Shown piece by piece: positions 7,870 through 52,810 of a DNA stretch of 64,000 bases. Under the pieces are notes generated by a model. That model searched no databases, was not told the DNA's origin, and saw nothing but the letters and a program-made list of their open reading frames with translations. This DNA is from an uncultured Zhenpiania sp. GTDB taxonomy: Bacteria > Bacillota > Clostridia > Peptostreptococcales > Anaerovoracaceae. The first letter of the stretch is position 1; the number at the start of each line of letters is the position of its first letter. The stretch is taken from NCBI GenBank assembly GCA_964625475.1, contig CAZVBL010000004.1, positions 1,143 through 65,142 on the forward strand, given 5' to 3'. The position numbers were made by a program, and so were the translations under genes.

Positions 7870-8226
7870 CATTCGGGCAGCCCGTAAGCCGGGTTCTGTA
7901 TTTGGCAATCATCTATCTCGACGTACTGTCACCAGCACGCTCCAGCGACTCACCTCTCGGGCAGCGACGGGCCGCCGCCTTTCATGCCCTTTCTTAGTCT
8001 TGCTCCGGATGGGGTTTACACGAGAAGCATGTTGCCATGCCTCCCGGTGAGCTCTTACCTCGCCATTTCAACCTTACCACGGCACGACCCGTTTCGGCGG
8101 TATGTTTCTGTTGCACTTTCCCTATAGTTACCTACGCCAGACGTTATCTGGCACCCTCGCCCTGTGGAGCCCGGACTTTCCTCATGCGCCCCAAAAGCGC
8201 ACGCAATTGCCTGGACTACCCGAATG
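7870..8226 (-). ncRNA. rnpB: RNase P RNA (class A)
   Basis: The minus strand contains GAGGAAAGTCCGGGCTCC, GAAAGTGCAACAGAAA, GGTAAGGTTGAAATGGCGAGGTAAGAGCTCACC and ACAGAACCCGGCTTA; the CATTCGGG / CCCGAATG ends pair. Confidence 0.97.
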
Positions 8227-15724: not shown

Positions 15725-15913
15725 TTAAAAATATAACCTTCGTTCCAAATTTTTTCCCAGAGTCTCATCTACCCGCGCAAAATGCCCCAGTACGGTTTGA
15801 ATGACATCTTCGTTTTCAAACATGAGGCTTTCAGCGATGTTCTCCACCAAATCCTCTTTTTCAGAGGGTTCCATGCTTCGGTAATAAGCGGCTGCCTGGC
15901 TGAATTCCATCAT
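15725..15913 (-). CDS. Stand-alone catalase C-terminal helical (catalase-related) domain, 62 aa
   Basis: FSQAAAYYRSMEPSEKEDLVENIAESL...HFARVDETLG; own RBS GAGGAG and ATGA overlap with the upstream gene. Confidence 0.8.
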   Translation of the reverse strand: MMEFSQAAAYYRSMEPSEKEDLVENIAESLMFENEDVIQTVLGHFARVDETLGKNLERRLYF

Positions 15914-16878
15914 TTTTGCGCTCCTCTCTGTCGACCCCCGTCTTTGTGGGCATAGTCCATGACTTGCAGGAATTCCTCATGGGTCAACCGCATCCCGTCC
16001 ACCAAGTTGGAAGGGAAAAAGCAAAGCCGCTCGCCTTGCTCCTTGGAAAGGATCTCCCGTAACGTCATTTTCCCGATTTTCACATAAGGATACTGCTCCT
16101 CCGGCCACAAGCAGGTAGCGGAAAAAGGGTCAAACCCACAGTTTTCCCTTTGCTCCTGTTCCATCATCTGGATTTCCAGCTCATACATCGGAAAACTTCC
16201 TTCCTCCAATGCGAGAACCAGATCGGAAATGCAACAGTCCGGCGAGAATCCGGCCAGAAACTCCGCCTCCTGATACGAAATTCCCTTTCTTTTTCCATTT
16301 TCTTCCTCTCCTTCACAGCAAGGGTTCCATCGATATCGAACATACGCTTCTTTTTCCCGTTCATTGATCCATCGGTAGGCATTGACGCTGTACCCTTCCA
16401 TATGGCGATAGGATTTTATCGTACCCTGGTTGGAATAAAGGCGAATGGCCAGGTTCATGGCCTCCGGATTTTCGGCGAGGAACCGCCAAAAATTTGGTTC
16501 GCCTCCGTATGCCTGTTGGGGAAATCCCAAAGATCTTACCATTTGGGGGAATTTAGCTGGGTCGTTGATGTAGTAGACTGGAAAATTGTTGCAGATCAAA
16601 TCACAATCCCCTTGTTCCGTATGGAACCTGACGGAAAAGCCACGGGTGTCCCGATGGGAATCGCCGCTTCCCAGTTCTCCCATGCACCTTGAGAATCGTA
16701 CTGTCACCGGGGTTTCCTGCCCTGGATCTTGGAGAAAACAGGCAGATGTGTAATCCGCAAGGCACATGTATGGGCTAAAGCTGCCTTTTGCGGCGACTCC
16801 TTTTCGGTGCAGCAGCGGAGGCCTGGCGGCCTGGCCGTTCAATTCGCCGATCTTTTCCAGCAACAAAAAATCTGTCAT
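15910..16878 (-). CDS. Truncated catalase-fold heme protein with atypical proximal ligand (Tyr to His)
   Basis: LLHRKG, VRFS, RDTRGFSVRF, DLICNNFP, YRHMEGY, WP..YP and LQVMDYAHKDGGRQR; RBS AGGTGG before ATG 16878. Confidence 0.85.
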   Translation of the reverse strand: MTDFLLLEKIGELNGQAARPPLLHRKGVAAKGSFSPYMCLADYTSACFLQDPGQETPVTVRFSRCMGELGSGDSHRDTRGFSVRFHTEQGDCDLICNNFPVYYINDPAKFPQMVRSLGFPQQAYGGEPNFWRFLAENPEAMNLAIRLYSNQGTIKSYRHMEGYSVNAYRWINEREKEAYVRYRWNPCCEGEEENGKRKGISYQEAEFLAGFSPDCCISDLVLALEEGSFPMYELEIQMMEQEQRENCGFDPFSATCLWPEEQYPYVKIGKMTLREILSKEQGERLCFFPSNLVDGMRLTHEEFLQVMDYAHKDGGRQRGAQK

Positions 16879-16895
16879 CACATACCACCTCAACG

Positions 16896-44280: not shown

Positions 44281-44378
44281 GAGCGCGCTCCAGGGAATCC
44301 CACAAGCCGCCGCACCCGCACGGCATCGGTCATTTCCCCGAAGGCGAGTGCGCTCCAGGGAATCCCACAAGCCGCCGC
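44281..44378. repeat. 33-bp direct repeat (32/33 identical), 65-bp period, abutting the sigF stop codon
   Basis: GAGYGCGCTCCAGGGAATCCCACAAGCCGCCGC at 44281-44313 and 44346-44378. Confidence 0.88.
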
Positions 44379-45118
44379 TACCGCACCATCTGCTCCCGCA
44401 TGCTTTGAAGCACTTTCTTTTCAATGCGGGACACCTGAACCTGGGAAATCCCGATTTTCCCTGCGATTTGCTGTTGCGTCATATCTTTGAAATACCGCAG
44501 GACGATGATCTGCCTTTCCCGCTCCGGCAGGGTTCCAATCATCATTTTCAAATCGATCAGGTTGACGTTCCTGTCCTCTTCTGAAACGTGGCTGACCTTC
44601 CTCTCCCGGTAGCCCTCGGAGATTTCGCCGTTGTCCAGGCTCTCCACGTTTGTCAGGGCTTCCGCCGCATCGAGGATTTCCAGTATCTTTTCAACTGGCT
44701 GCCCCATTTGCTCCGACAAGTAGCTGAGCTTTGGCCAGGAGCCGTGCCGGTTGTAATAGTCTTCCCTGATTTTTTTCAGGTTTCGCATGTCGGTTTTCAG
44801 CTGACGGCTCACCTTGATCCTGCCGTCATCGCGAATGTATCGCTTGATTTCCCCCAGAATCATGGGAACGGCATAGGTGGAAAACATCACGTTGAATTTG
44901 GTGTCAAACCGATCGATGGCTTTTAGCAGGCCCATGAAGCCGATCTGCAAAAGATCGTCCAGCTCGCAGCCGGATCCGACAAATTTCAAAGCCAGGTTCT
45001 TTACAAGTCCTGTGTTCTGCGCGACAATCAGCTCCCGCGCTTCCTGGTCGCCTTGCTGCGCCCGTTCAATCAGCGCATATGTATCTTCTTTTTTTGCCGG
45101 AACGTATTTAGAGGCCAT
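44378..45118 (-). CDS. sigF: Forespore sigma factor SigF
   Basis: DDLLQIG..GLLKAID, FSTYAVPMILGEIKR, SQVQVSRIEK; last gene of the spoIIA operon. Confidence 0.95.
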   Translation of the reverse strand: MASKYVPAKKEDTYALIERAQQGDQEARELIVAQNTGLVKNLALKFVGSGCELDDLLQIGFMGLLKAIDRFDTKFNVMFSTYAVPMILGEIKRYIRDDGRIKVSRQLKTDMRNLKKIREDYYNRHGSWPKLSYLSEQMGQPVEKILEILDAAEALTNVESLDNGEISEGYRERKVSHVSEEDRNVNLIDLKMMIGTLPERERQIIVLRYFKDMTQQQIAGKIGISQVQVSRIEKKVLQSMREQMVR

Positions 45119-45551
45119 CGCTGATATCGAGCTGCTTGGTCATCGTCACCGTCGTTCCCTCGCCAGTGCGAGACACAACCTCCAATCGATCCATGAAGCT
45201 TTCCATCACCGTAAAGCCCATGCCCGACCGTTCTTCTGCGCTCCCCGTGGTGAACATGGGTTCCCTGGCCTTTTCCACGTCCTCGATTCCCACGCCCCAG
45301 TCCCGCACGATGAGAATGACCTTTCCGCTGGGGCGGAGTTGGCATTCCAATTCTACCATTTGACCCGGATCTCCATCGTATCCGTGGATGATGCTGTTGC
45401 TTACCGCTTCCGACACGCCGGTCTTGATTTCCGTCAGTTCCTCGATGGTAGGATCCATGCAGGCGACGAAAGCCGCTGCCGCTGACCGGGCAAACCCCTC
45501 ATTCTCCGCTCTTGCGGAAAACTGCAGTTTCATCCTATTGTCCACTGGCAT
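45108..45551 (-). CDS. spoIIAB: Anti-sigma F factor
   Basis: NEGFARSAAAAF, SEAVSNSIIHGY, RSGMGFTVMESFMD. Confidence 0.97.
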   Translation of the reverse strand: MPVDNRMKLQFSARAENEGFARSAAAAFVACMDPTIEELTEIKTGVSEAVSNSIIHGYDGDPGQMVELECQLRPSGKVILIVRDWGVGIEDVEKAREPMFTTGSAEERSGMGFTVMESFMDRLEVVSRTGEGTTVTMTKQLDISDGL

Positions 45552-45915
45552 TCACCTCCATTTTCATCTGCTCCTGCCCTTTCAACAGGCAAACCGCATC
45601 CTCTTTGTTTTTTTGCTTGTCCACCACGGTGAAAACGCCTGCCATGTACAAAATTTTCTCCACGAATTGCGAGCATCCTGCCAGGAAAATGCGGCCTCCC
45701 CGCTTCGTCACCTTGTTATAACGCCCCAGCACCATGCCGATGCCGGAGCTATCCATGAACGTCACCTTCTCGAAATCCAAAATCAAATGGCGGCAGCCAA
45801 AAGCAGCCATGGTTTCATCTATTTCATCCCGAAGGGTTCCTGCGCTGTGGTGATCCAGTTCCCCAAAGGCGGAAGCGATGAGAATGTCGTCCGTGGTTTG
45901 AAATTCCAATTGCAT
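45535..45915 (-). CDS. spoIIAA: Anti-anti-sigma F factor
   Basis: GELDHHSA, FMDSSGIG; RBS AAGGAGG before ATG 45915. Confidence 0.96.
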   Translation of the reverse strand: MQLEFQTTDDILIASAFGELDHHSAGTLRDEIDETMAAFGCRHLILDFEKVTFMDSSGIGMVLGRYNKVTKRGGRIFLAGCSQFVEKILYMAGVFTVVDKQKNKEDAVCLLKGQEQMKMEVNASGQ

Positions 45916-46007
45916 AAAAAGCCCCTCCTTTCTCACCCTTCCATTATATCCCCTGGAAAAGGGCTTGTCCTTAAGAGAAAAAGGGGAAATGCTTCTATTT
46001 TTGGCGA

Positions 46008-47198
46008 TTATTCCGGTTTTATGTCGATGGTTTCCCGGGAAGCCGCAGCTTCTGCGATCAGGGACTCGCAGTCCAGCTTGCTCTCTGACCGCAGGATTCG
46101 CTCCAGCTTTGGCTTTGTGGCCGGATGCTTTGGCAAAAATACGGTGCAGCAGTCCTCATAAGGCTGGATGGACGTTTCGTAAGTCCCGATTTCCCTGGCT
46201 CTGTCCATGATCTCCACCTTGTCCATGGCAATGAGGGGGCGCATGACGGGAAGCTGCACCGAAGCGTCCGTCACGACCAGGGCTTCCGCTGTCTGGCTGG
46301 CCACCTGTCCCAGGTTTTCCCCGGTAATGAGCATGCCGCAGCCCGTTTCCTTTGCTACCTGTTCCCCAATTCGCATCATGAACCGGCGAACCAGGATGGT
46401 GGTTTCTTCTTCCGGGCAGTTCTGGACGATCTGCTCCTGAATGGGCAGCAGGTTGATGACGTGCATTTTGAATCGCCCGCAGTAAACGGCCACGATCCTC
46501 GCCAAATCCTCCACCTTCTCCTGGGCGCGCTGGCTGGTATACGGATAGGAATGAAAGTGGATGGCTTCGATGAGCATGCCTCGCTTTGCCATCATCCAAG
46601 TGGCTACCGGGCTGTCGATGCCGCCGGAAAGCAGGCTCATGCCCTTGCCGTTGGTTCCCAGGGGCAGGCCGCCGAAGCCTGGGATTTTGTCCTGGTAAAT
46701 ATAGGACTTGTCGTGGCGCACATCCACGAACAGCAAGCAGTCCGGCTGGTTCACGTCTACCCGCAGCACCTTGCACCCAACCAGGATTTTCGCACCGATG
46801 ATCCGACCGATTTCCGGCGATTTGACAGGAAAATTTTTATCGGCTCGCTTCGCCTTTACCTTAAAGGTCCCGATGCCTCGCTCTTCGATGATTTCTTTCA
46901 TGTATGCGACCGCTGCTTCTCCGATGGCATCCAGGTTGGAGTCGGCTTCTACCGCCGGGCTGATGGAAGCCACGCCAAACACCTTGGAAATCTCATGGAT
47001 GATTTCCTGCTTTTCATAGGCTTTGTCCGCCCTGACGAAAATCAGGCCCTCGTGCCTTTTGACCTCAAAATTCTGGAATTTACGCTTGAGAAGTTTGCGG
47101 ATCCGCTCTGCCAGCATCCGCTCGAAATAAGGCTTGTTCATGCCCTTTAACGCCACTTCTCCGCATCTTACGATCAATATGTGCTGCTCGTTCAACAT
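46008..47198 (-). CDS. thiI: tRNA 4-thiouridine synthase
   Basis: THUMP domain, PP-loop LLSGGIDSPV, GQVASQT, PYEDCC. Confidence 0.97.
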   Translation of the reverse strand: MLNEQHILIVRCGEVALKGMNKPYFERMLAERIRKLLKRKFQNFEVKRHEGLIFVRADKAYEKQEIIHEISKVFGVASISPAVEADSNLDAIGEAAVAYMKEIIEERGIGTFKVKAKRADKNFPVKSPEIGRIIGAKILVGCKVLRVDVNQPDCLLFVDVRHDKSYIYQDKIPGFGGLPLGTNGKGMSLLSGGIDSPVATWMMAKRGMLIEAIHFHSYPYTSQRAQEKVEDLARIVAVYCGRFKMHVINLLPIQEQIVQNCPEEETTILVRRFMMRIGEQVAKETGCGMLITGENLGQVASQTAEALVVTDASVQLPVMRPLIAMDKVEIMDRAREIGTYETSIQPYEDCCTVFLPKHPATKPKLERILRSESKLDCESLIAEAAASRETIDIKPE

Positions 47199-47336
47199 CG
47201 TTCTCCTTGTCCTTCTGATTATCCCTAAATCGATTTGTCCCTCGATCGGAAGTTGCCTGAATCTGCCCGAAAACCATCTGGAGTCCCAAAATCCACCTGA
47301 ATCCAGAAGTGTCCGCAAACGATCCGAATCCCAAAC

Positions 47337-48533
47337 CTATCGAAAACTCCCCAGCTTTCGGAACCGTGCCACGGCTCCCTTTACTTTGTCAAGCACGATG
47401 TCCATTTCTTCCACGGTGTTGTACCTCCCAAAGCTGAACCGAATCGCGCCTTCGATTTCTTTGTCCGTCAACCCCATGGCTTTCAACACATGGCTCTGTC
47501 CTTTCTTGTTGGAAGCGCAGGCTGATCCAGTGGAAACGTAGATTCCATCCTGCTCCAGCGTATGGAGCAGGACTTCTGCTCGGGTGCCAAGGAACGATAC
47601 GTTGAGCACTGCCGGGCAGCCGTCCTGGGGGCTGTTGATTTTGATGTCCGAAATCTCCTGCCGGATTCCTTCCATCAGGTAGTTTCGCAGCACCCCCAGG
47701 TCCATCGTCCGCCCGTCAGGCGAATCCATCCCCGCAATGTCATCTGAAGGTTCCAATCGCTGAACCGCGCCGGATGACGATTCCTCCAGTCGCCGGATCA
47801 TGTCGGCAGCCGTGCCAAAGCCTGCGATGGCCGGCACGTTTTCCGTTCCCGAACGCATCCCATCCTCCTGGCCGCCTCCTACGAGAAACGCCGGGATATG
47901 GATATTGGGCGCGATCCACAAGGCGCCGATGCCCTTTGGCCCGTGGATCTTGTGGCCGCTGACGGAAATCATGTCAGCGGTTTTCGGCAGGGGCAGCTTC
48001 CCAAATGCCTGCACCCCATCGGTGTGGAGCACAGCCTTTTTTTTATGCTTCGCAATTTCATCGATGGGCATGACGGTTCCCGTCTCATTGTTGACCTGCA
48101 TGATGGAAATCAGGATGGTATCCTCATCGATCGCTTCTTTCAGCTGCTCCATGTCCAGGCGGCACTCGCCATCCACGCCTACGAAAACCACGTCAAACCC
48201 CTGCTGGGCCAGCCGTTTGCAGGCTTCCAGCACGGCAGGATGTTCCACCTGCGAAGTAACGATTCTGCGGCCTCGCTTTTTCCTGGCCGCCGCAGTTCCG
48301 AAAATGGCCATGCTGTCGGCTTCCGTTCCCCCGGAAGTAAAATACAGGTTTCCCCGGGATTGCCCCATGGCGTTCATGACTTTTTTCCGAGCCGTCTTCA
48401 CGGCCTTTTCTGCTGTGACTCCCAGCTGGTAAAGGGACGATGGGTTCCCAAAGTCCTCTTTCATGTATGCGATCATGGTTTCCGTCACCGCATCGTGTTG
48501 TCTGGTGGTGGCGCTGTTGTCTAAGTAAATCAT
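47337..48533 (-). CDS. Cysteine desulfurase paired with ThiI (NifZ/IscS2-like)
   Basis: YLDNSATT, SGHKIHGPKG, STGSAC; lies directly upstream of thiI. Confidence 0.93.
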   Translation of the reverse strand: MIYLDNSATTRQHDAVTETMIAYMKEDFGNPSSLYQLGVTAEKAVKTARKKVMNAMGQSRGNLYFTSGGTEADSMAIFGTAAARKKRGRRIVTSQVEHPAVLEACKRLAQQGFDVVFVGVDGECRLDMEQLKEAIDEDTILISIMQVNNETGTVMPIDEIAKHKKKAVLHTDGVQAFGKLPLPKTADMISVSGHKIHGPKGIGALWIAPNIHIPAFLVGGGQEDGMRSGTENVPAIAGFGTAADMIRRLEESSSGAVQRLEPSDDIAGMDSPDGRTMDLGVLRNYLMEGIRQEISDIKINSPQDGCPAVLNVSFLGTRAEVLLHTLEQDGIYVSTGSACASNKKGQSHVLKAMGLTDKEIEGAIRFSFGRYNTVEEMDIVLDKVKGAVARFRKLGSFR

Positions 48534-48627: not shown

Positions 48628-51564
48628 CTATTTTCCATAATACTCCGAAAGCACCGACATCACGGTCGGTATGTCCAGTGGCTTCGTCAAATGGGCGTTC
48701 ATTCCTGCCCGTATGGTTTTCTTTACATCCTCATCATAGGCGTTCGCTGTCATGGCGATAATGGGGACGGTCGCCGCATCCGGGCGATCCATCGTGCGTA
48801 TTGTGCGAGTTGCCTCCAGGCCATCCATGACCGGCATCATGATATCCATCAAAATCACATGATAATACCCAGGCGTTGAGGCTGCAAATTTTTCCACCGC
48901 CGCTTTTCCATTTTCCGCAGGAAACACCTGTGCTCTTTCGTCCTCCAACACGGATCGGATGATTTCCATATTGAGCGCATTGTCCTCGACCGCAAGTATT
49001 CTCATGCCCGTTAGGTCACAAGCGACAGGTTTTGATTCTGAAAAAAGTTTGGGTTTCAATTCGGTAATCTCAATCGGCAGTTCTATGGTGAATTTGCTGC
49101 CCCTGTCCAACTGGCTTTCTACGGAAATCGACCCGCCCATCATATCGACGAACTGCTTGGTGATGGACATTCCAAGCCCGGTGCCCTTGTAATTCGTCCG
49201 GCCTCCTCCATCCGCCTGGGAAAAGGGTTCCCAGATATGTTCCAGGAACTCAGGGGTCATGCCGATGCCCGTATCCTCAACCTCAAACCGAATCATCGTT
49301 TCCCTGTCGGCATCGGGCGATTCCTCGATGCGAAACACGATTTTTCCGCCATCGGGCGTGAATTTCACCGCATTTCCAAGGATGTTCACCAAAATCTGCC
49401 GCAGGCGAAGTTCATCTCCTATCCGATACGGGTGTCGATATTCAGGGAATTCCCGGACAAATTCGATTTCCCTGTTCACCATCTGCCCCTGGATAATGGC
49501 AACGCAACGTTCTATCATGATCGTCATGTCCATGAACTCATGATTCAGGGATATCTTGCCGCTTTCGATGCGGCTCATGTCCAATACATCGTTAATGAGG
49601 TTCAGCAAATGTTCCGAGGATTCCAAAATTTTGCCGAGGCAGTCCTCCACCCTTTTCGGATTGTTCAGGGAACGCATGGCAATGTTGCCCATGCCCATGA
49701 TCCCATTGATGGGAGTGCGAATGTCATGTGACATGTTGGACAAAAATGTGCTCTTCGCCTGGTTGGCATATTTGGCCTGTTTCAACGCTTCTTCCAACGC
49801 TTTTCGCTGCTCCATCTCTTTTTTGATGGTTTCCGTTATGATTCTTTTTGCCAGGACCACTTGGTAACCGCGATCCTGCTCCGACAGCTTCGTGAAACGA
49901 AATTGGATGTAATCGGGTTCTTCCGCATTGTTGCGCAAATTCACATTGTAAATGCTTTTGTCCTGAAGTTGTTCCAGGATGAAATCGAGCTTTGTGGCAT
50001 CGAGCCACATTTCTTTGTCTTCATCGTGAACATGCTCCACATATGCGGAAATGGCCTCATAGTAATCGTTGCTGCTTGCCAGCGCTGCGATTTCCGGCGA
50101 ATCATCGTTCGCCTTGTATACGGACATCTCTTCGGTCTCGCAGTCGATCAATGCGATAAAATTGTAATCGCTGCTCAAAGCGGCGATGATTTCATAGGAT
50201 TCCTCCAGCATCTCCTTTTGGGATATTTCGCTGCGCATTTCATCATCCACGCCATGAACGCCCATGACGACCTGATGCTTGCCATCCTGCCACCCGCCCA
50301 TGCGAACCAGTTTCAACTGATAATATTCGATCTCCCCATCCTGCTGGATGCGATAATTCACATTGAGGGAGGCCTGCATGTCCAGCTCCATCCACAAATG
50401 CTCCGGGGAACACATCAGGTACAGGAATTCTTGATCCTCCTCGTAGACGACATCATGGATGTAACGTCTCATGCTTTCCTGAAATGAATGTTTTCCCGCA
50501 AAAAAGGCGTTGCCTTCACCGCTCATGTCATCGTTCGTGCGGTAAGGGGTTGCGGTTCCCGCATCAAGATCCACCAGATAGACGAAGCTATATTCCGCAC
50601 ATAAAGCCTGTATTATTGCAAACTGTTGCTTTTTTTCCTCCCACAGTTTGATCTCATCGCTTGTTTTTTTTGCAGTCTGATCCAGGAGTATGCGCTGGAA
50701 AACCAACTCTCCATTTTCCATCAGCAGTTTGATTTTCCCGCTCACATCGAGTATGGTGCCATCCTTGTGGCAAACCCTGTATTCGATGTCCGCACTATCC
50801 CCAACCTTCTCAAGGTGCCGCAGGCATTCCCGGAACCTGGGCTTATCCTCTTCTGCCACGGAATCAGCGATCAAATCAAATCCTGCCGCCTCCAGCTCTT
50901 CCCTGCTTTCGTATCCCAGAATTTTGAGGGCGGCGCGATTGACGCCGAGTATTCGGTTCCCATGCACCGTATGACGTATCATGCCGCAGTCCGTAGAGGC
51001 AAAGATGGCTTCCAATACCTGGCTTTGGTTCTCCAGTTTTTCTTTGTCCGCTGCGCTGGATCTGTCATAACGTTCGGTAAATACGACATATTTGAGGATT
51101 CGCCCCAGCTTTCGCATGGCCGCCCGCTCTTCCTGCGTCCATGTCCGTTTGGCATGAAAATCGATCATTCCCACGTTCCCGTCACATTCCTGGTCCCTCA
51201 GGATCCCATAACGCAGAATCTCATAGTCCGATTTTTCCACGCCGCCTTTTGGCATGATTCCATCTGCCGTCACTTCGCTCAGGCCTTCCTCATCGTACAG
51301 AACCAATGCCCTGTTCCAGAACTCGTCCGAAACCGTATGGATTTTTCCTTGAAAGTTGTACCGTTCTTCTGAAAAACTCGCATGGGTGACCACATATCCC
51401 TGATAGCCGATTAAAGCTTCTGCGACATAGGCAACATCAACGTTGAATTTCGTGCGGCAGGCATCCAAAATGCGCATGATATCCACATTCTCCACACGAT
51501 CTTTTCCTTGCAGCGCAAAACAATACTCCTGTAAGTCATCATCAATCCTGGTCTGCATCGTCAT
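48628..51564 (-). CDS. Orphan hybrid histidine kinase (GAF-like/PAS-HisKA-HATPase-REC)
   Basis: No TM segments; SNMSHDIRTP, NILGNAVKF, GTGLG, receiver EDN / ILMDIMMP; RBS GAGGAG before ATG 51564. Confidence 0.93.
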   Translation of the reverse strand: MTMQTRIDDDLQEYCFALQGKDRVENVDIMRILDACRTKFNVDVAYVAEALIGYQGYVVTHASFSEERYNFQGKIHTVSDEFWNRALVLYDEEGLSEVTADGIMPKGGVEKSDYEILRYGILRDQECDGNVGMIDFHAKRTWTQEERAAMRKLGRILKYVVFTERYDRSSAADKEKLENQSQVLEAIFASTDCGMIRHTVHGNRILGVNRAALKILGYESREELEAAGFDLIADSVAEEDKPRFRECLRHLEKVGDSADIEYRVCHKDGTILDVSGKIKLLMENGELVFQRILLDQTAKKTSDEIKLWEEKKQQFAIIQALCAEYSFVYLVDLDAGTATPYRTNDDMSGEGNAFFAGKHSFQESMRRYIHDVVYEEDQEFLYLMCSPEHLWMELDMQASLNVNYRIQQDGEIEYYQLKLVRMGGWQDGKHQVVMGVHGVDDEMRSEISQKEMLEESYEIIAALSSDYNFIALIDCETEEMSVYKANDDSPEIAALASSNDYYEAISAYVEHVHDEDKEMWLDATKLDFILEQLQDKSIYNVNLRNNAEEPDYIQFRFTKLSEQDRGYQVVLAKRIITETIKKEMEQRKALEEALKQAKYANQAKSTFLSNMSHDIRTPINGIMGMGNIAMRSLNNPKRVEDCLGKILESSEHLLNLINDVLDMSRIESGKISLNHEFMDMTIMIERCVAIIQGQMVNREIEFVREFPEYRHPYRIGDELRLRQILVNILGNAVKFTPDGGKIVFRIEESPDADRETMIRFEVEDTGIGMTPEFLEHIWEPFSQADGGGRTNYKGTGLGMSITKQFVDMMGGSISVESQLDRGSKFTIELPIEITELKPKLFSESKPVACDLTGMRILAVEDNALNMEIIRSVLEDERAQVFPAENGKAAVEKFAASTPGYYHVILMDIMMPVMDGLEATRTIRTMDRPDAATVPIIAMTANAYDEDVKKTIRAGMNAHLTKPLDIPTVMSVLSEYYGK

Positions 51565-51783
51565 AGCCGATTCTCCTCGGACAATCTCCAATTTTGTCCG
51601 GATTGTCCCCAATCATCCCGTTTTTCAGCTTTACGTTTCCTTTAACAATATACCACAATCTCGGCTTTAAGGCAAAAGAAAAAGAATCGCCACAGACAAT
51701 TGTTTCCACGTCCCATCGCAGGGCAGCATGGGCTCTGGCACTTTTCAACATGTCCCTCCCTTGTTTTCAGTGAGTTCCAGGCA

Positions 51784-51978
51784 TTATCCACAGGATTTTT
51801 GAAATCGTATACAATTTTATCCATAGCCCCATGTGGATAAACATATTTTTACAATCGTTGATATTTCAACACTTTCATCATTCTGCAAAAATAAGTTATC
51901 CACAGTTTTCCACAATCTCTTCCAGATATTTTCAAATCATGCTGGATCCATTGATTTTTCATCGTTTTCTGTGGATGA
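51784..51978. promoter_or_regulatory. DnaA-box cluster
   Basis: Perfect TTATCCACA at 51784 (+), 51832 (-) and 51896 (+); one-mismatch boxes at 51817 (+), 51906 (+) and 51970 (-); AT-rich intergenic DNA. Confidence 0.85.
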
Positions 51979-52111: not shown

Positions 52112-52810
52112 ATGATAAGAAAAATCATTGAAATCAACGAAGAAGCTTGCAACGGCTGCGGCCTGTGCGCAGAGGCATGCCACGAAAGCGCGATCGGCAT
52201 GGTGGACGGAAAAGCCAAATTGCTGCGGGACGATTACTGCGATGGTCTGGGGGATTGCCTGCCGGCATGTCCTACCGGAGCCATTTCCTTTGTGGAACGG
52301 GAAGCGGATCCATACGACGAGGCCGCCGTCATGGCGAACAAAGAAAAAAAGCAGGGTGCGGCCTCCGCTCCTTGCGGATGTCCGGGGAGCAACGCCAGGA
52401 TCCTATCGCCTGAACCAAAAACGACAGGCTCCTGCGACCCTGCTTCCACGCAGCTGAGGCAGTGGCCGGTGCAGATCAAGCTGGCTCCTATCCACGCACC
52501 CTATTTTCAGGATGCGAAACTTCTCATCGCAGCGGACTGCGCAGCATACGCTTATGGGAACTTTCACAATGCGTTCATGAAGGGAACCGTCACCCTCATC
52601 GGCTGCCCGAAGCTGGATGACATCGATTATACGGAAAAACTGACGGAAATCATCCGGCAAAACGACATCAAAAGCGTGACCGTTGCGCGCATGGAAGTGC
52701 CTTGCTGCGGCGGCATTGAAACGGCTGTCAAAAATGCGCTGCAGGCCAGCGGCAAATTCCTGCCGTGGCAGGTGGTGACCATCTCCACGGATGGGCGGAT
52801 TTTGGACTAG
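52112..52810 (+). CDS. 4Fe-4S dicluster protein with a C-terminal Cys-containing domain
   Basis: CNGCGLCAEAC, CDGLGDCLPACP, LRQWPVQ, AADC, GCPKLD, MEVPCC. Confidence 0.9.
   Translation: MIRKIIEINEEACNGCGLCAEACHESAIGMVDGKAKLLRDDYCDGLGDCLPACPTGAISFVEREADPYDEAAVMANKEKKQGAASAPCGCPGSNARILSPEPKTTGSCDPASTQLRQWPVQIKLAPIHAPYFQDAKLLIAADCAAYAYGNFHNAFMKGTVTLIGCPKLDDIDYTEKLTEIIRQNDIKSVTVARMEVPCCGGIETAVKNALQASGKFLPWQVVTISTDGRILD

Follow-up and report, generated by a model that had tools for sequence, protein, structure and literature searches.

In Firmicutes, non-origin control of the replication initiator DnaA is known from Bacillus subtilis alone, where five of the six DnaA-box clusters (DBCs) are situated in the origin's vicinity. 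In Escherichia coli, the datA locus promotes the hydrolysis of DnaA-ATP, and the DARS loci promote the release of ADP. Both types of sites act on the DnaA-ATP/ADP cycle, not on a gene (PMC5742627). At such sites, DnaA from B. subtilis functions as a transcription factor that turns on sda and represses ywlC, yydA, and vpr (PMC4447404, PMC3245932), and the clusters combine regulation of the adjacent gene (sda up; ywlC and yydA down) with a joint restraint on initiation (PMC3245932, PMC4447404). The B. subtilis non-origin clusters are poorly conserved, and the features that distinguish them are unknown (PMC3245932). Here, we analyze a cluster of DnaA boxes present on a 64-kb stretch of DNA from an uncultured Zhenpiania sp.; we refer to this entire stretch as the window. 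Our sequence comparisons indicate that the cluster is one copy of a conserved, non-coding, and non-origin DNA element found in many Clostridia. Literature searches yielded no description of such an element, and it has apparently never been described before.

When we searched the whole window for TTATCCACA, allowing at most one mismatch, we found 20 sites. The only three perfect boxes begin at positions 51784 (+), 51832 (-), and 51896 (+), and one-mismatch boxes at 51817 (+), 51906 (+), and 51970 (-) are interspersed with them, giving a total of six boxes, three of them perfect, in positions 51784-51978. An initial annotation of the region had counted the same three perfect and three one-mismatch boxes; the two box pairs to which it pointed, one head-to-head (51817/51832) and one in tandem (51896/51906), are both arranged as described there. 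Sequences simulated from the window with a first-order Markov model (n = 300) had no more than three boxes, at most two of them perfect, within 200 bp; simulation with the AT-rich composition of this intergenic region likewise reached a maximum of three boxes per 200 bp. A clustering of these boxes by chance is thus excluded. Seven perfect boxes overall were present in 863 kb of other Clostridia DNA used for comparison, and none of its 300-bp stretches scored above one third of the value of the cluster. The G+C content of the cluster is 32%, compared to about 50% for the window, and it occupies an intergenic region between a gene for a hybrid histidine kinase on the minus strand and a gene for a ferredoxin-like protein (Fer4 gene) on the plus strand. 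An additional weak but conserved box (TTTTCAACA) is located at 51742-51750 (+), to the left of the start that the initial annotation had given (51784), and the functional unit begins at about position 51737.

The Fer4 gene (52112-52810, plus strand) codes for a protein of 232 amino acids that, according to Pfam, possesses a ferredoxin domain for two [4Fe-4S] clusters and an AF_0155-type C-terminal domain. We sought homologues of this protein, and of the kinase, in a collection of 5.8 billion proteins. Close Fer4 homologues with 88, 84, 82, and 79% identity were recovered, along with those of Anaerovorax odorimutans (77%) and Ihubacter massiliensis (76%); together with the window, these six lineages (76-88% identity) make up the set of seven lineages considered below. 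In all of them, the stretch of about 380-420 bp that precedes the Fer4 gene contains the same boxes at the same distances, with box B1 at position 0, the minus-strand box B3 at +48, and box B4 at +112. The spacers between the boxes are variable (0-2 invariant positions), and this includes the short spacers separating B1, B2, and B3, which are free to vary. Between lineages, the identity of the cluster amounts to 81-84%, whereas that of the four-fold degenerate sites of the adjacent gene is 45-62%; this difference reflects strong purifying selection on the non-coding cluster.

The genes flanking this unit differ among the seven lineages. The left-hand neighbor is the kinase gene in the window, a DUF6512 gene in four lineages, and a divergently oriented S11 peptidase gene in Anaerovorax and Ihubacter, and the gene to the right of the Fer4 gene encodes a LUD-domain protein in the window, an ABC transporter in four lineages, and the Prismane protein Hcp in Anaerovorax and Ihubacter. 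These comparisons indicate that the cluster travels with the ferredoxin-like gene and not with the kinase gene. In A. odorimutans (L091:6001-8319) and I. massiliensis (L094:8001-10318), hcp directly follows the element-linked Fer4 gene. A frdX-hcp pair of Clostridioides difficile is induced by nitric oxide via HcpR (PMC12915319, PMC1274295). Since the pairing of the Fer4 gene with hcp matches this arrangement, we refer to the Fer4 gene as FrdX-like, a name that we take from the gene neighborhood alone. The link to hcp raises the possibility that DnaA boxes are positioned ahead of an operon for defense against nitric oxide.

The core of the element, in its Fer4-type form, extends from 51737 to 51914 on the plus strand and comprises B0, B1, a -10 block, B2, B3, a palindrome, B4, and B5. 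In the alignment of the seven lineages, 88 of the 168 positions in 51737-51904 are invariant, and positions 51700-51964 of the window are matched by an nhmmer profile built from 26 members of the family (E = 2e-51). The three perfect boxes, B1 (51784-51792, +), B3 (51832-51840, -), and B4 (TTATCCACAG; 51896-51904, +), are each invariant at all nine positions. The starts of B1 and B3 are 48 bp apart in the window, and this distance is either 48 bp (n = 21) or 49 bp (n = 5) in the family; the starts of B3 and B4 are separated by 64 bp in the window. The weak box B0 (also M1), which begins 42 bp ahead of B1, deviates from TTATCCACA at two positions and from TTWTNCACA at one, and the block in which it is contained (CACTTTTCAACAT) is invariant at 12 of 13 positions. 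The one-mismatch box B2 (TTATCCATA; 51817-51825, +) stands head-to-head with B3; six of its nine positions are invariant, only its TTATCC half is conserved, and it carries between zero and three mismatches family-wide. Between B1 and B2 lies the -10 block AAATCGTATACAATT (51802-51816, +) with 14 of 15 invariant positions. It contains the -10-like hexamer TACAAT (51810-51815), a match of our promoter scan, 17 nt past the 3' part of B1, TCCACA, which is at the same time a -35-like hexamer. A near-palindrome, M2 (GTTGATATTTCAAC; 51857-51870), holds the sequence TTTCAAC and, on the minus strand, the -35-like hexamer TTGAAA; TTTCAA is conserved at a fixed position across the family, +57 from the start of the module. 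The outer boxes are far less conserved: B5 (TTTTCCACA; 51906-51914, +), in tandem to B4, has one invariant position out of nine and is specific to the lineage group of the window, and B6 (TCATCCACA; 51970-51978, -) has two, with the nearest relatives keeping its TGTGGAT core alone and Anaerovorax and Ihubacter lacking it.

For a retrieval independent of any protein, we scanned metagenome contigs for the pattern GTATACAATTTTATCC-N9-TGTGGATAA, in which the -10 block is combined with half of B2 and with B3. We obtained 22 loci, in one of which a Fer4 gene is present. The conservation check that had been proposed for the cluster was positive, with B1, B3, and B4 invariant in seven lineages and 22 further copies in metagenomes. 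By construction, the metagenome set shows no variation in the 25 bases of the pattern (-10 block, B3, and TTATCC half of B2). Although they are outside the search pattern, B1, B4, and the weak B0 keep fixed positions throughout the 22 copies. B1 has at most one mismatch in all 26 family members, B4 at most one in 25 of the 26 aligned copies, and B0 keeps its position in most metagenome copies. Apart from the Fer4 locus, the metagenome copies share a left arm with the sequence TTATGTCAAC...TGTTCGC as well as the weak box TTTTCAACA and B1 placed 48-49 bp ahead of B3; these are followed by TTTCAAC at +57, often by TGTCAA at +85, and then by B4. The spacing from B3 to B4 falls into two classes of 63-64 bp (n = 9) and 72-76 bp (n = 17). 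They differ by about one helical turn, in keeping with proteins that contact the DNA from the same side.

The gene contexts of the metagenome copies are unlike those of the Fer4 type. All 12 loci with enough right flank carry a downstream, co-oriented gene of the AlaX type (tRNA_SAD plus DHHA1 domains). On the right of the element, six loci have an Amidase_3 (CwlD-like) gene on the opposite strand, which in five of them is inserted between the element and alaX, and an AraC-family gene is divergently oriented on the left in seven. Wherever the flank is long enough, the element is followed by a co-oriented gene. The AlaX proteins flanking the element are mutually just 34-45% identical, and the element family is therefore old.

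The sister group (L097-L118; e.g., L110:3663-3943 and L100:7866-8141) possesses the extra left arm and a B3-B4 interval that is 10 bp longer. A profile of the 26 copies, run over 1.23 Mb of collected DNA, found no extra copy except for a tandem duplicate in locus L109. These two copies (L109:8863-9134 and L109:9420-9663) are about 550 bp apart in the same orientation and represent the sole duplication that we saw. A motif, T(G/T)TCAA(C/T), recurs on the same strand at -99, -66, +57, and +85 from the GTATACAAT block (51743-51749 and 51864-51870 in the window). Its -66 copy (-64 in the window) is located within the weak DnaA box TTTTCAACA; the remaining copies could represent very weak boxes or bind a different protein.

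If the element is written in its window orientation, the DNA to its left and right has a negative GC skew in the window and in the majority of the other loci. Among the metagenome loci with data, this is true for 18 of 19 left flanks and 13 of 18 right flanks, and both flanks are negative in four of five Fer4-type relatives (L088, L089, L090, and L092; the left flank of L086 is near zero, +0.016). The element thus seems to keep one orientation relative to the movement of the replication fork, with its downstream gene, of either the Fer4 or the AlaX type, on the lagging strand; we regard this as a lead, given the short flanks and the shared synteny inside each group.

With respect to function, we give roughly an even chance to the view that the boxes constitute a conserved regulatory element of double-stranded DNA, about 180-240 bp in length and attached upstream of the FrdX-like gene, at which DnaA gates a promoter. 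DnaA would bind to the three invariant consensus boxes B1 (+), B3 (-), and B4 (+), whose spacing is fixed and of which B4 is helically phased, and would spread from there cooperatively onto the weak boxes B0 and B2 (and, in the window, onto B5 and B6 as well) to form a defined oligomer outside oriC. The sequence TCCACA-17-TACAAT embedded in this array is a putative sigma-A-type promoter, P(+), predicted to read toward the Fer4 gene; a consensus scan places B1 over its -35 region and has B2 and B3 bracketing the predicted start at about 51819-51823, in a block that is conserved. Occupancy by DnaA would gate transcription toward the downstream gene, in the simplest case through repression when active DnaA is abundant, and the site might also hold DnaA away from the origin, as the DnaA-box clusters of B. 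subtilis do.

The sequence comparisons establish the conservation and spacing of the boxes, their position outside an origin, and the lack of coding or RNA-structure signals; that DnaA binds there, that the promoter is active, and in which direction it is regulated is what we infer. Since Firmicutes and E. coli have the box-reading residues of DnaA in common (PMC7561715), the three exact consensus boxes should be of high affinity. The conservation of the weak boxes as weak ones, together with the helical phasing of B4, suggests a defined cooperative DnaA oligomer. The invariant boxes at fixed spacing and the invariant -10 block speak for promoter gating by DnaA, as does the finding that no terminator is predicted from the element to the Fer4 gene.

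Other observations weigh against it. The -35 region of the putative P(+) is weak, with four of six matches, and the leader reaching to the start of the Fer4 gene would be about 290 nt long. The downstream gene varies by clade, being FrdX-like in one and of the AlaX type in the other, and 80 Fer4/FrdX-like homologues with 63-73% identity from 80 GTDB species are without the cluster; the association of the cluster with the Fer4 gene is, on this evidence, clade-specific. The variation in the downstream gene and the convergent amidase gene between the element and alaX argue for a function that is not tied to any one gene. Furthermore, the invariance of the -10 block, B3, and half of B2 in the metagenome set is built into the search pattern, and a simple operator model would not explain the TKTCAAY motifs, the TTGAAATTTCAA palindrome, or the left arm TTATGTCAAC...TGTTCGC.

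It is possible, but distinctly less probable, that the element is a locus dedicated to control of the DnaA cycle, i.e., a clostridial counterpart of datA, DARS, or of the DBCs that restrain initiation. Its neighboring gene would then be incidental, and the motifs that are not boxes would bind accessory proteins. In size and make-up the element comes near to minimal datA (262 bp, with three essential boxes and one site for an accessory protein), and its head-to-head box pair is reminiscent of the DARS core (PMC5742627). That non-origin clusters can restrain initiation in a Firmicute was reported for B. subtilis by Okumura et al. (PMC3245932). Also in line with such a locus are the occurrence of the element, with some 100 of its positions conserved, in two or more unrelated gene contexts and next to AlaX proteins as divergent as those described above, and the preservation of strong boxes as strong and weak boxes as weak. 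The same applies to its low copy number (one tandem duplicate and no other extra match in 1.23 Mb), its nearly constant orientation relative to GC skew, and the extent of the conserved part, which is far larger than an ordinary operator and includes several unexplained motifs. However, Firmicutes are not known to possess IHF, Fis, or Hda, and the mechanisms operating in E. coli are therefore not simply transferable. A promoter better accounts for the invariant -10-like block and its fixed distance from B1, and the clusters of Bacillus, unlike the element studied here, are not position-conserved between species (PMC3245932). In its most specific form, namely a datA/DARS equivalent in which an ancient DnaA-assembly site of about 240 bp, locked in its orientation, combines strong boxes with purposely weak ones and with sites for an accessory protein (the TKTCAAY motifs and the palindrome), this idea is more tentative still. 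If it held true, the level of initiator activity would be set by the element once in each cell cycle in bacteria without Hda, SeqA, IHF, and Fis, and the head-on genes (FrdX-like and AlaX-type) would serve as read-outs of replication status.

The initial annotation had itself considered a datA/DBC-like locus or, alternatively, DnaA control of the adjacent orphan kinase that would couple replication to sporulation. The first part of this proposal survives in that we find a non-origin DnaA-box cluster of this kind that is under strong purifying selection; the second part, a role in kinase control and sporulation, is attractive but unsupported. The kinase gene (48628-51570, minus strand), a neighbor of the element but not part of it, encodes a hybrid histidine kinase with PAS, HisKA, HATPase_c, and receiver domains (Pfam) and lacks an adjacent response regulator gene. 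A predicted promoter of its own (TTGCCT-17-extended -10 TGnTATATT; 51647-51675, minus strand) is preceded by a T-rich block. The nearest relatives of the kinase in the protein collection are 73% (locus L001) and 72% identical. L001 keeps the downstream genes iscS, thiI, spoIIAA, spoIIAB, and sigF, the kinase promoter with its 5' untranslated region, and an identical 24-nt T-rich block ahead of the promoter. Upstream of its kinase gene, L001 carries vanW-ddl-vanY and no DnaA boxes. The kinase loci L001 and L002 and those of homologues with 44-47% identity (L083-L085) are all devoid of boxes, and their contexts are not shared. Homology to the L001 kinase locus stops at about 51691, and homology to the Fer4 loci starts at about 51710. 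Because of this breakpoint, and because the cluster of the other lineages is not accompanied by the kinase, we regard the adjacency of kinase and cluster as the probable result of a rearrangement with a junction at 51692-51709 that is peculiar to this genome or, possibly, to its assembly.

A control by DnaA of this kinase, coupling replication status to Spo0A and sporulation, is accordingly very improbable, despite the position of the element 64-110 bp upstream of the -35 region of the kinase promoter in this genome and the presence of spoIIAA-spoIIAB-sigF two genes away from the kinase. A promoter-like sequence on the minus strand (TTGAAA-18-TATGTT; 51869-51840) would read toward the kinase as well, but its -35 hexamer is conserved and its -10 hexamer is not, leaving it a weak possibility. 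The kinase promoter and 5' untranslated region are conserved in L001, where the boxes are absent, and none of the 28 other copies of the element adjoins this kinase. The breakpoint in homology falls between the kinase promoter and the element, and the more distant homologues in other contexts are boxless. Moreover, the kinase carries a receiver domain, and nothing ties it to Spo0A.

The order of the kinase, iscS-like, thiI, spoIIAA, spoIIAB, and sigF genes is the same in the window (44378-48533, minus strand) and in L001 (6821-10896); the kinase gene thus adjoins the operon for the forespore sigma factor in both. The vanW-ddl-vanY genes of L001 (970-3564), which include those for a D-Ala-D-Ala ligase and a VanY carboxypeptidase, occupy the place that the DnaA-box element has in the window.

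We consider it slightly less credible again that the conserved region encodes a small RNA, a small protein, or a cis-regulatory leader RNA, with the box-like inverted repeats (B2/B3 and B3/B4) forming RNA helices instead of serving as protein sites. B3 is perfectly complementary to B1, B2 (6-9 bp), and B4, and alternative hairpins could consequently form in a plus-strand transcript; in addition, a run of T residues often follows B4. Yet the region had no match in Rfam even at E<=1, and an RNAalifold analysis of 23 copies gave an invariant 6-bp B2/B3 pairing alone, with no covarying pairs. The repeats are fixed as exact DnaA consensus boxes rather than covarying, and the candidate open reading frames are not conserved as coding sequences. 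One of these (69 codons; 51542-51751) overlaps the conserved kinase promoter and 5' untranslated region and has no counterpart in L001. The other (60 codons, from 51824; MDKIVYDFK...) is frameshifted to 26 codons in L088-L090 and lacks a start in Anaerovorax. No other conserved intergenic open reading frame that could encode an Sda-like inhibitor or another small protein was found. As for other DNA-binding proteins, an exact Spo0A box (TGTCGAA) is present in just one of 26 copies, and by eye the consensus sequences for LexA, HcpR/FNR, CtsR, parS, and the sporulation sigma factors do not fit; these candidates were set aside.

The GC skew of the window is negative in nearly every 2-kb bin, amounting to -0.198 at 50-52 kb and to between -0.026 and -0.12 over the following 12 kb, and the cumulative skew falls from 8 kb to 64 kb straight through the site. 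The skew consequently does not switch at the cluster, in agreement with the non-origin view taken by the initial annotation. Its further remarks, that no dnaA gene is nearby, that a DnaA-trio run is missing, and that the genes are mostly on the minus strand, are also borne out. Neither dnaA nor dnaN was found among the open reading frames of the window scanned by Pfam (no Bac_DnaA), and a tblastn search with a DnaA probe gave no match in the window or in 118 loci; the best DnaA-trio-like 15-mer matched at 8 of 15 positions, not above the background of the window, and the genes to the right of the cluster are mostly on the minus strand. A blastn search against 72,556 plasmids and 50,697 phages and a pattern search of IMG/VR viral contigs were without a match, no mobile-element genes are near, and the flanks of the element hold housekeeping genes. 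The source contig, about 70 kb in length, contains no origin. With these data, and with clostridial origins residing at rpmH-dnaA-dnaN (PMC7561715), a chromosomal origin, the relic of one, or an origin brought in by an integrated plasmid or phage is the least plausible of all the explanations, the dense consensus boxes in AT-rich intergenic DNA notwithstanding.

Elsewhere in the window, Pfam identified dnaG-sigA, recQ, the spoIIAA-spoIIAB-sigF operon, iscS, thiI, and mfd. An RNase P RNA of the bacterial class A is encoded at 7870-8222 (minus strand; 268 bits). A catalase-family open reading frame of 327 codons at 15725-16893 (minus strand) matches profile positions 24-338 of 383 and is directly followed by one of 62 codons; the two could represent a split or truncated catalase gene.

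Across families of Clostridia and in unrelated neighborhoods, the element has kept the order, orientation, and helical phasing of its boxes and their pattern of weak and strong sites, and it thus offers a defined sequence that can be mutated and tested. If it binds DnaA, it may be a conserved member of the DnaA regulon of gut anaerobes that connects the status of replication with a ferredoxin-like gene whose relatives are paired with hcp, a gene for defense against nitrosative stress. Alternatively, binding of DnaA would make it a control locus of the datA/DARS type in a phylum in which none is known.

Among the described systems, the bipartite oriC of clostridia (rpmH-dnaA-dnaN) resembles the cluster in that three or more boxes, separated by less than 100 bp, are found in AT-rich DNA (PMC7561715), but the cluster lacks dnaA/dnaN, a skew switch, a DnaA-trio, and an unwinding element. 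E. coli datA, DARS1, and DARS2 are, like the element, non-coding and about 100-400 bp in size, with three key boxes plus accessory sites and, in the case of the DARS core, a head-to-head arrangement (PMC5742627). They share no sequence relationship with it and require IHF and Fis, whereas the element holds a promoter-like block that is always followed by a co-oriented gene. At DnaA-regulated promoters (PdnaA, sda, nrdAB, and gidA of Pseudomonas aeruginosa), where DnaA works as a transcription factor, boxes are located over and around the core promoter (PMC4447404, PMC13438810), and those of the element are predicted to have such a position; it differs from these promoters in that its putative FrdX-like and AlaX-type targets have no known link to replication, and in being much larger and more conserved than the usual operator. 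Similar to the B. subtilis clusters, it consists of consensus boxes in an intergenic region outside oriC, at promoter regions of a Firmicute. None of the genes neighboring those clusters (sda, ywlC, yydA, vpr, gcp, and thdF/jag) is found here; the neighbors are instead the hybrid kinase and Fer4 genes in the window and DUF6512, S11 peptidase, AlaX-type, AraC-family, and Amidase_3 genes elsewhere. In contrast to the B. subtilis clusters, the element keeps its box order, orientation, and spacing, the -10 block, and the extra motifs across families of Clostridia. While DnaA-box clusters outside the origin are already known, what appears to be new from these sequence comparisons is a discrete element whose architecture is conserved across Clostridia families and gene contexts.

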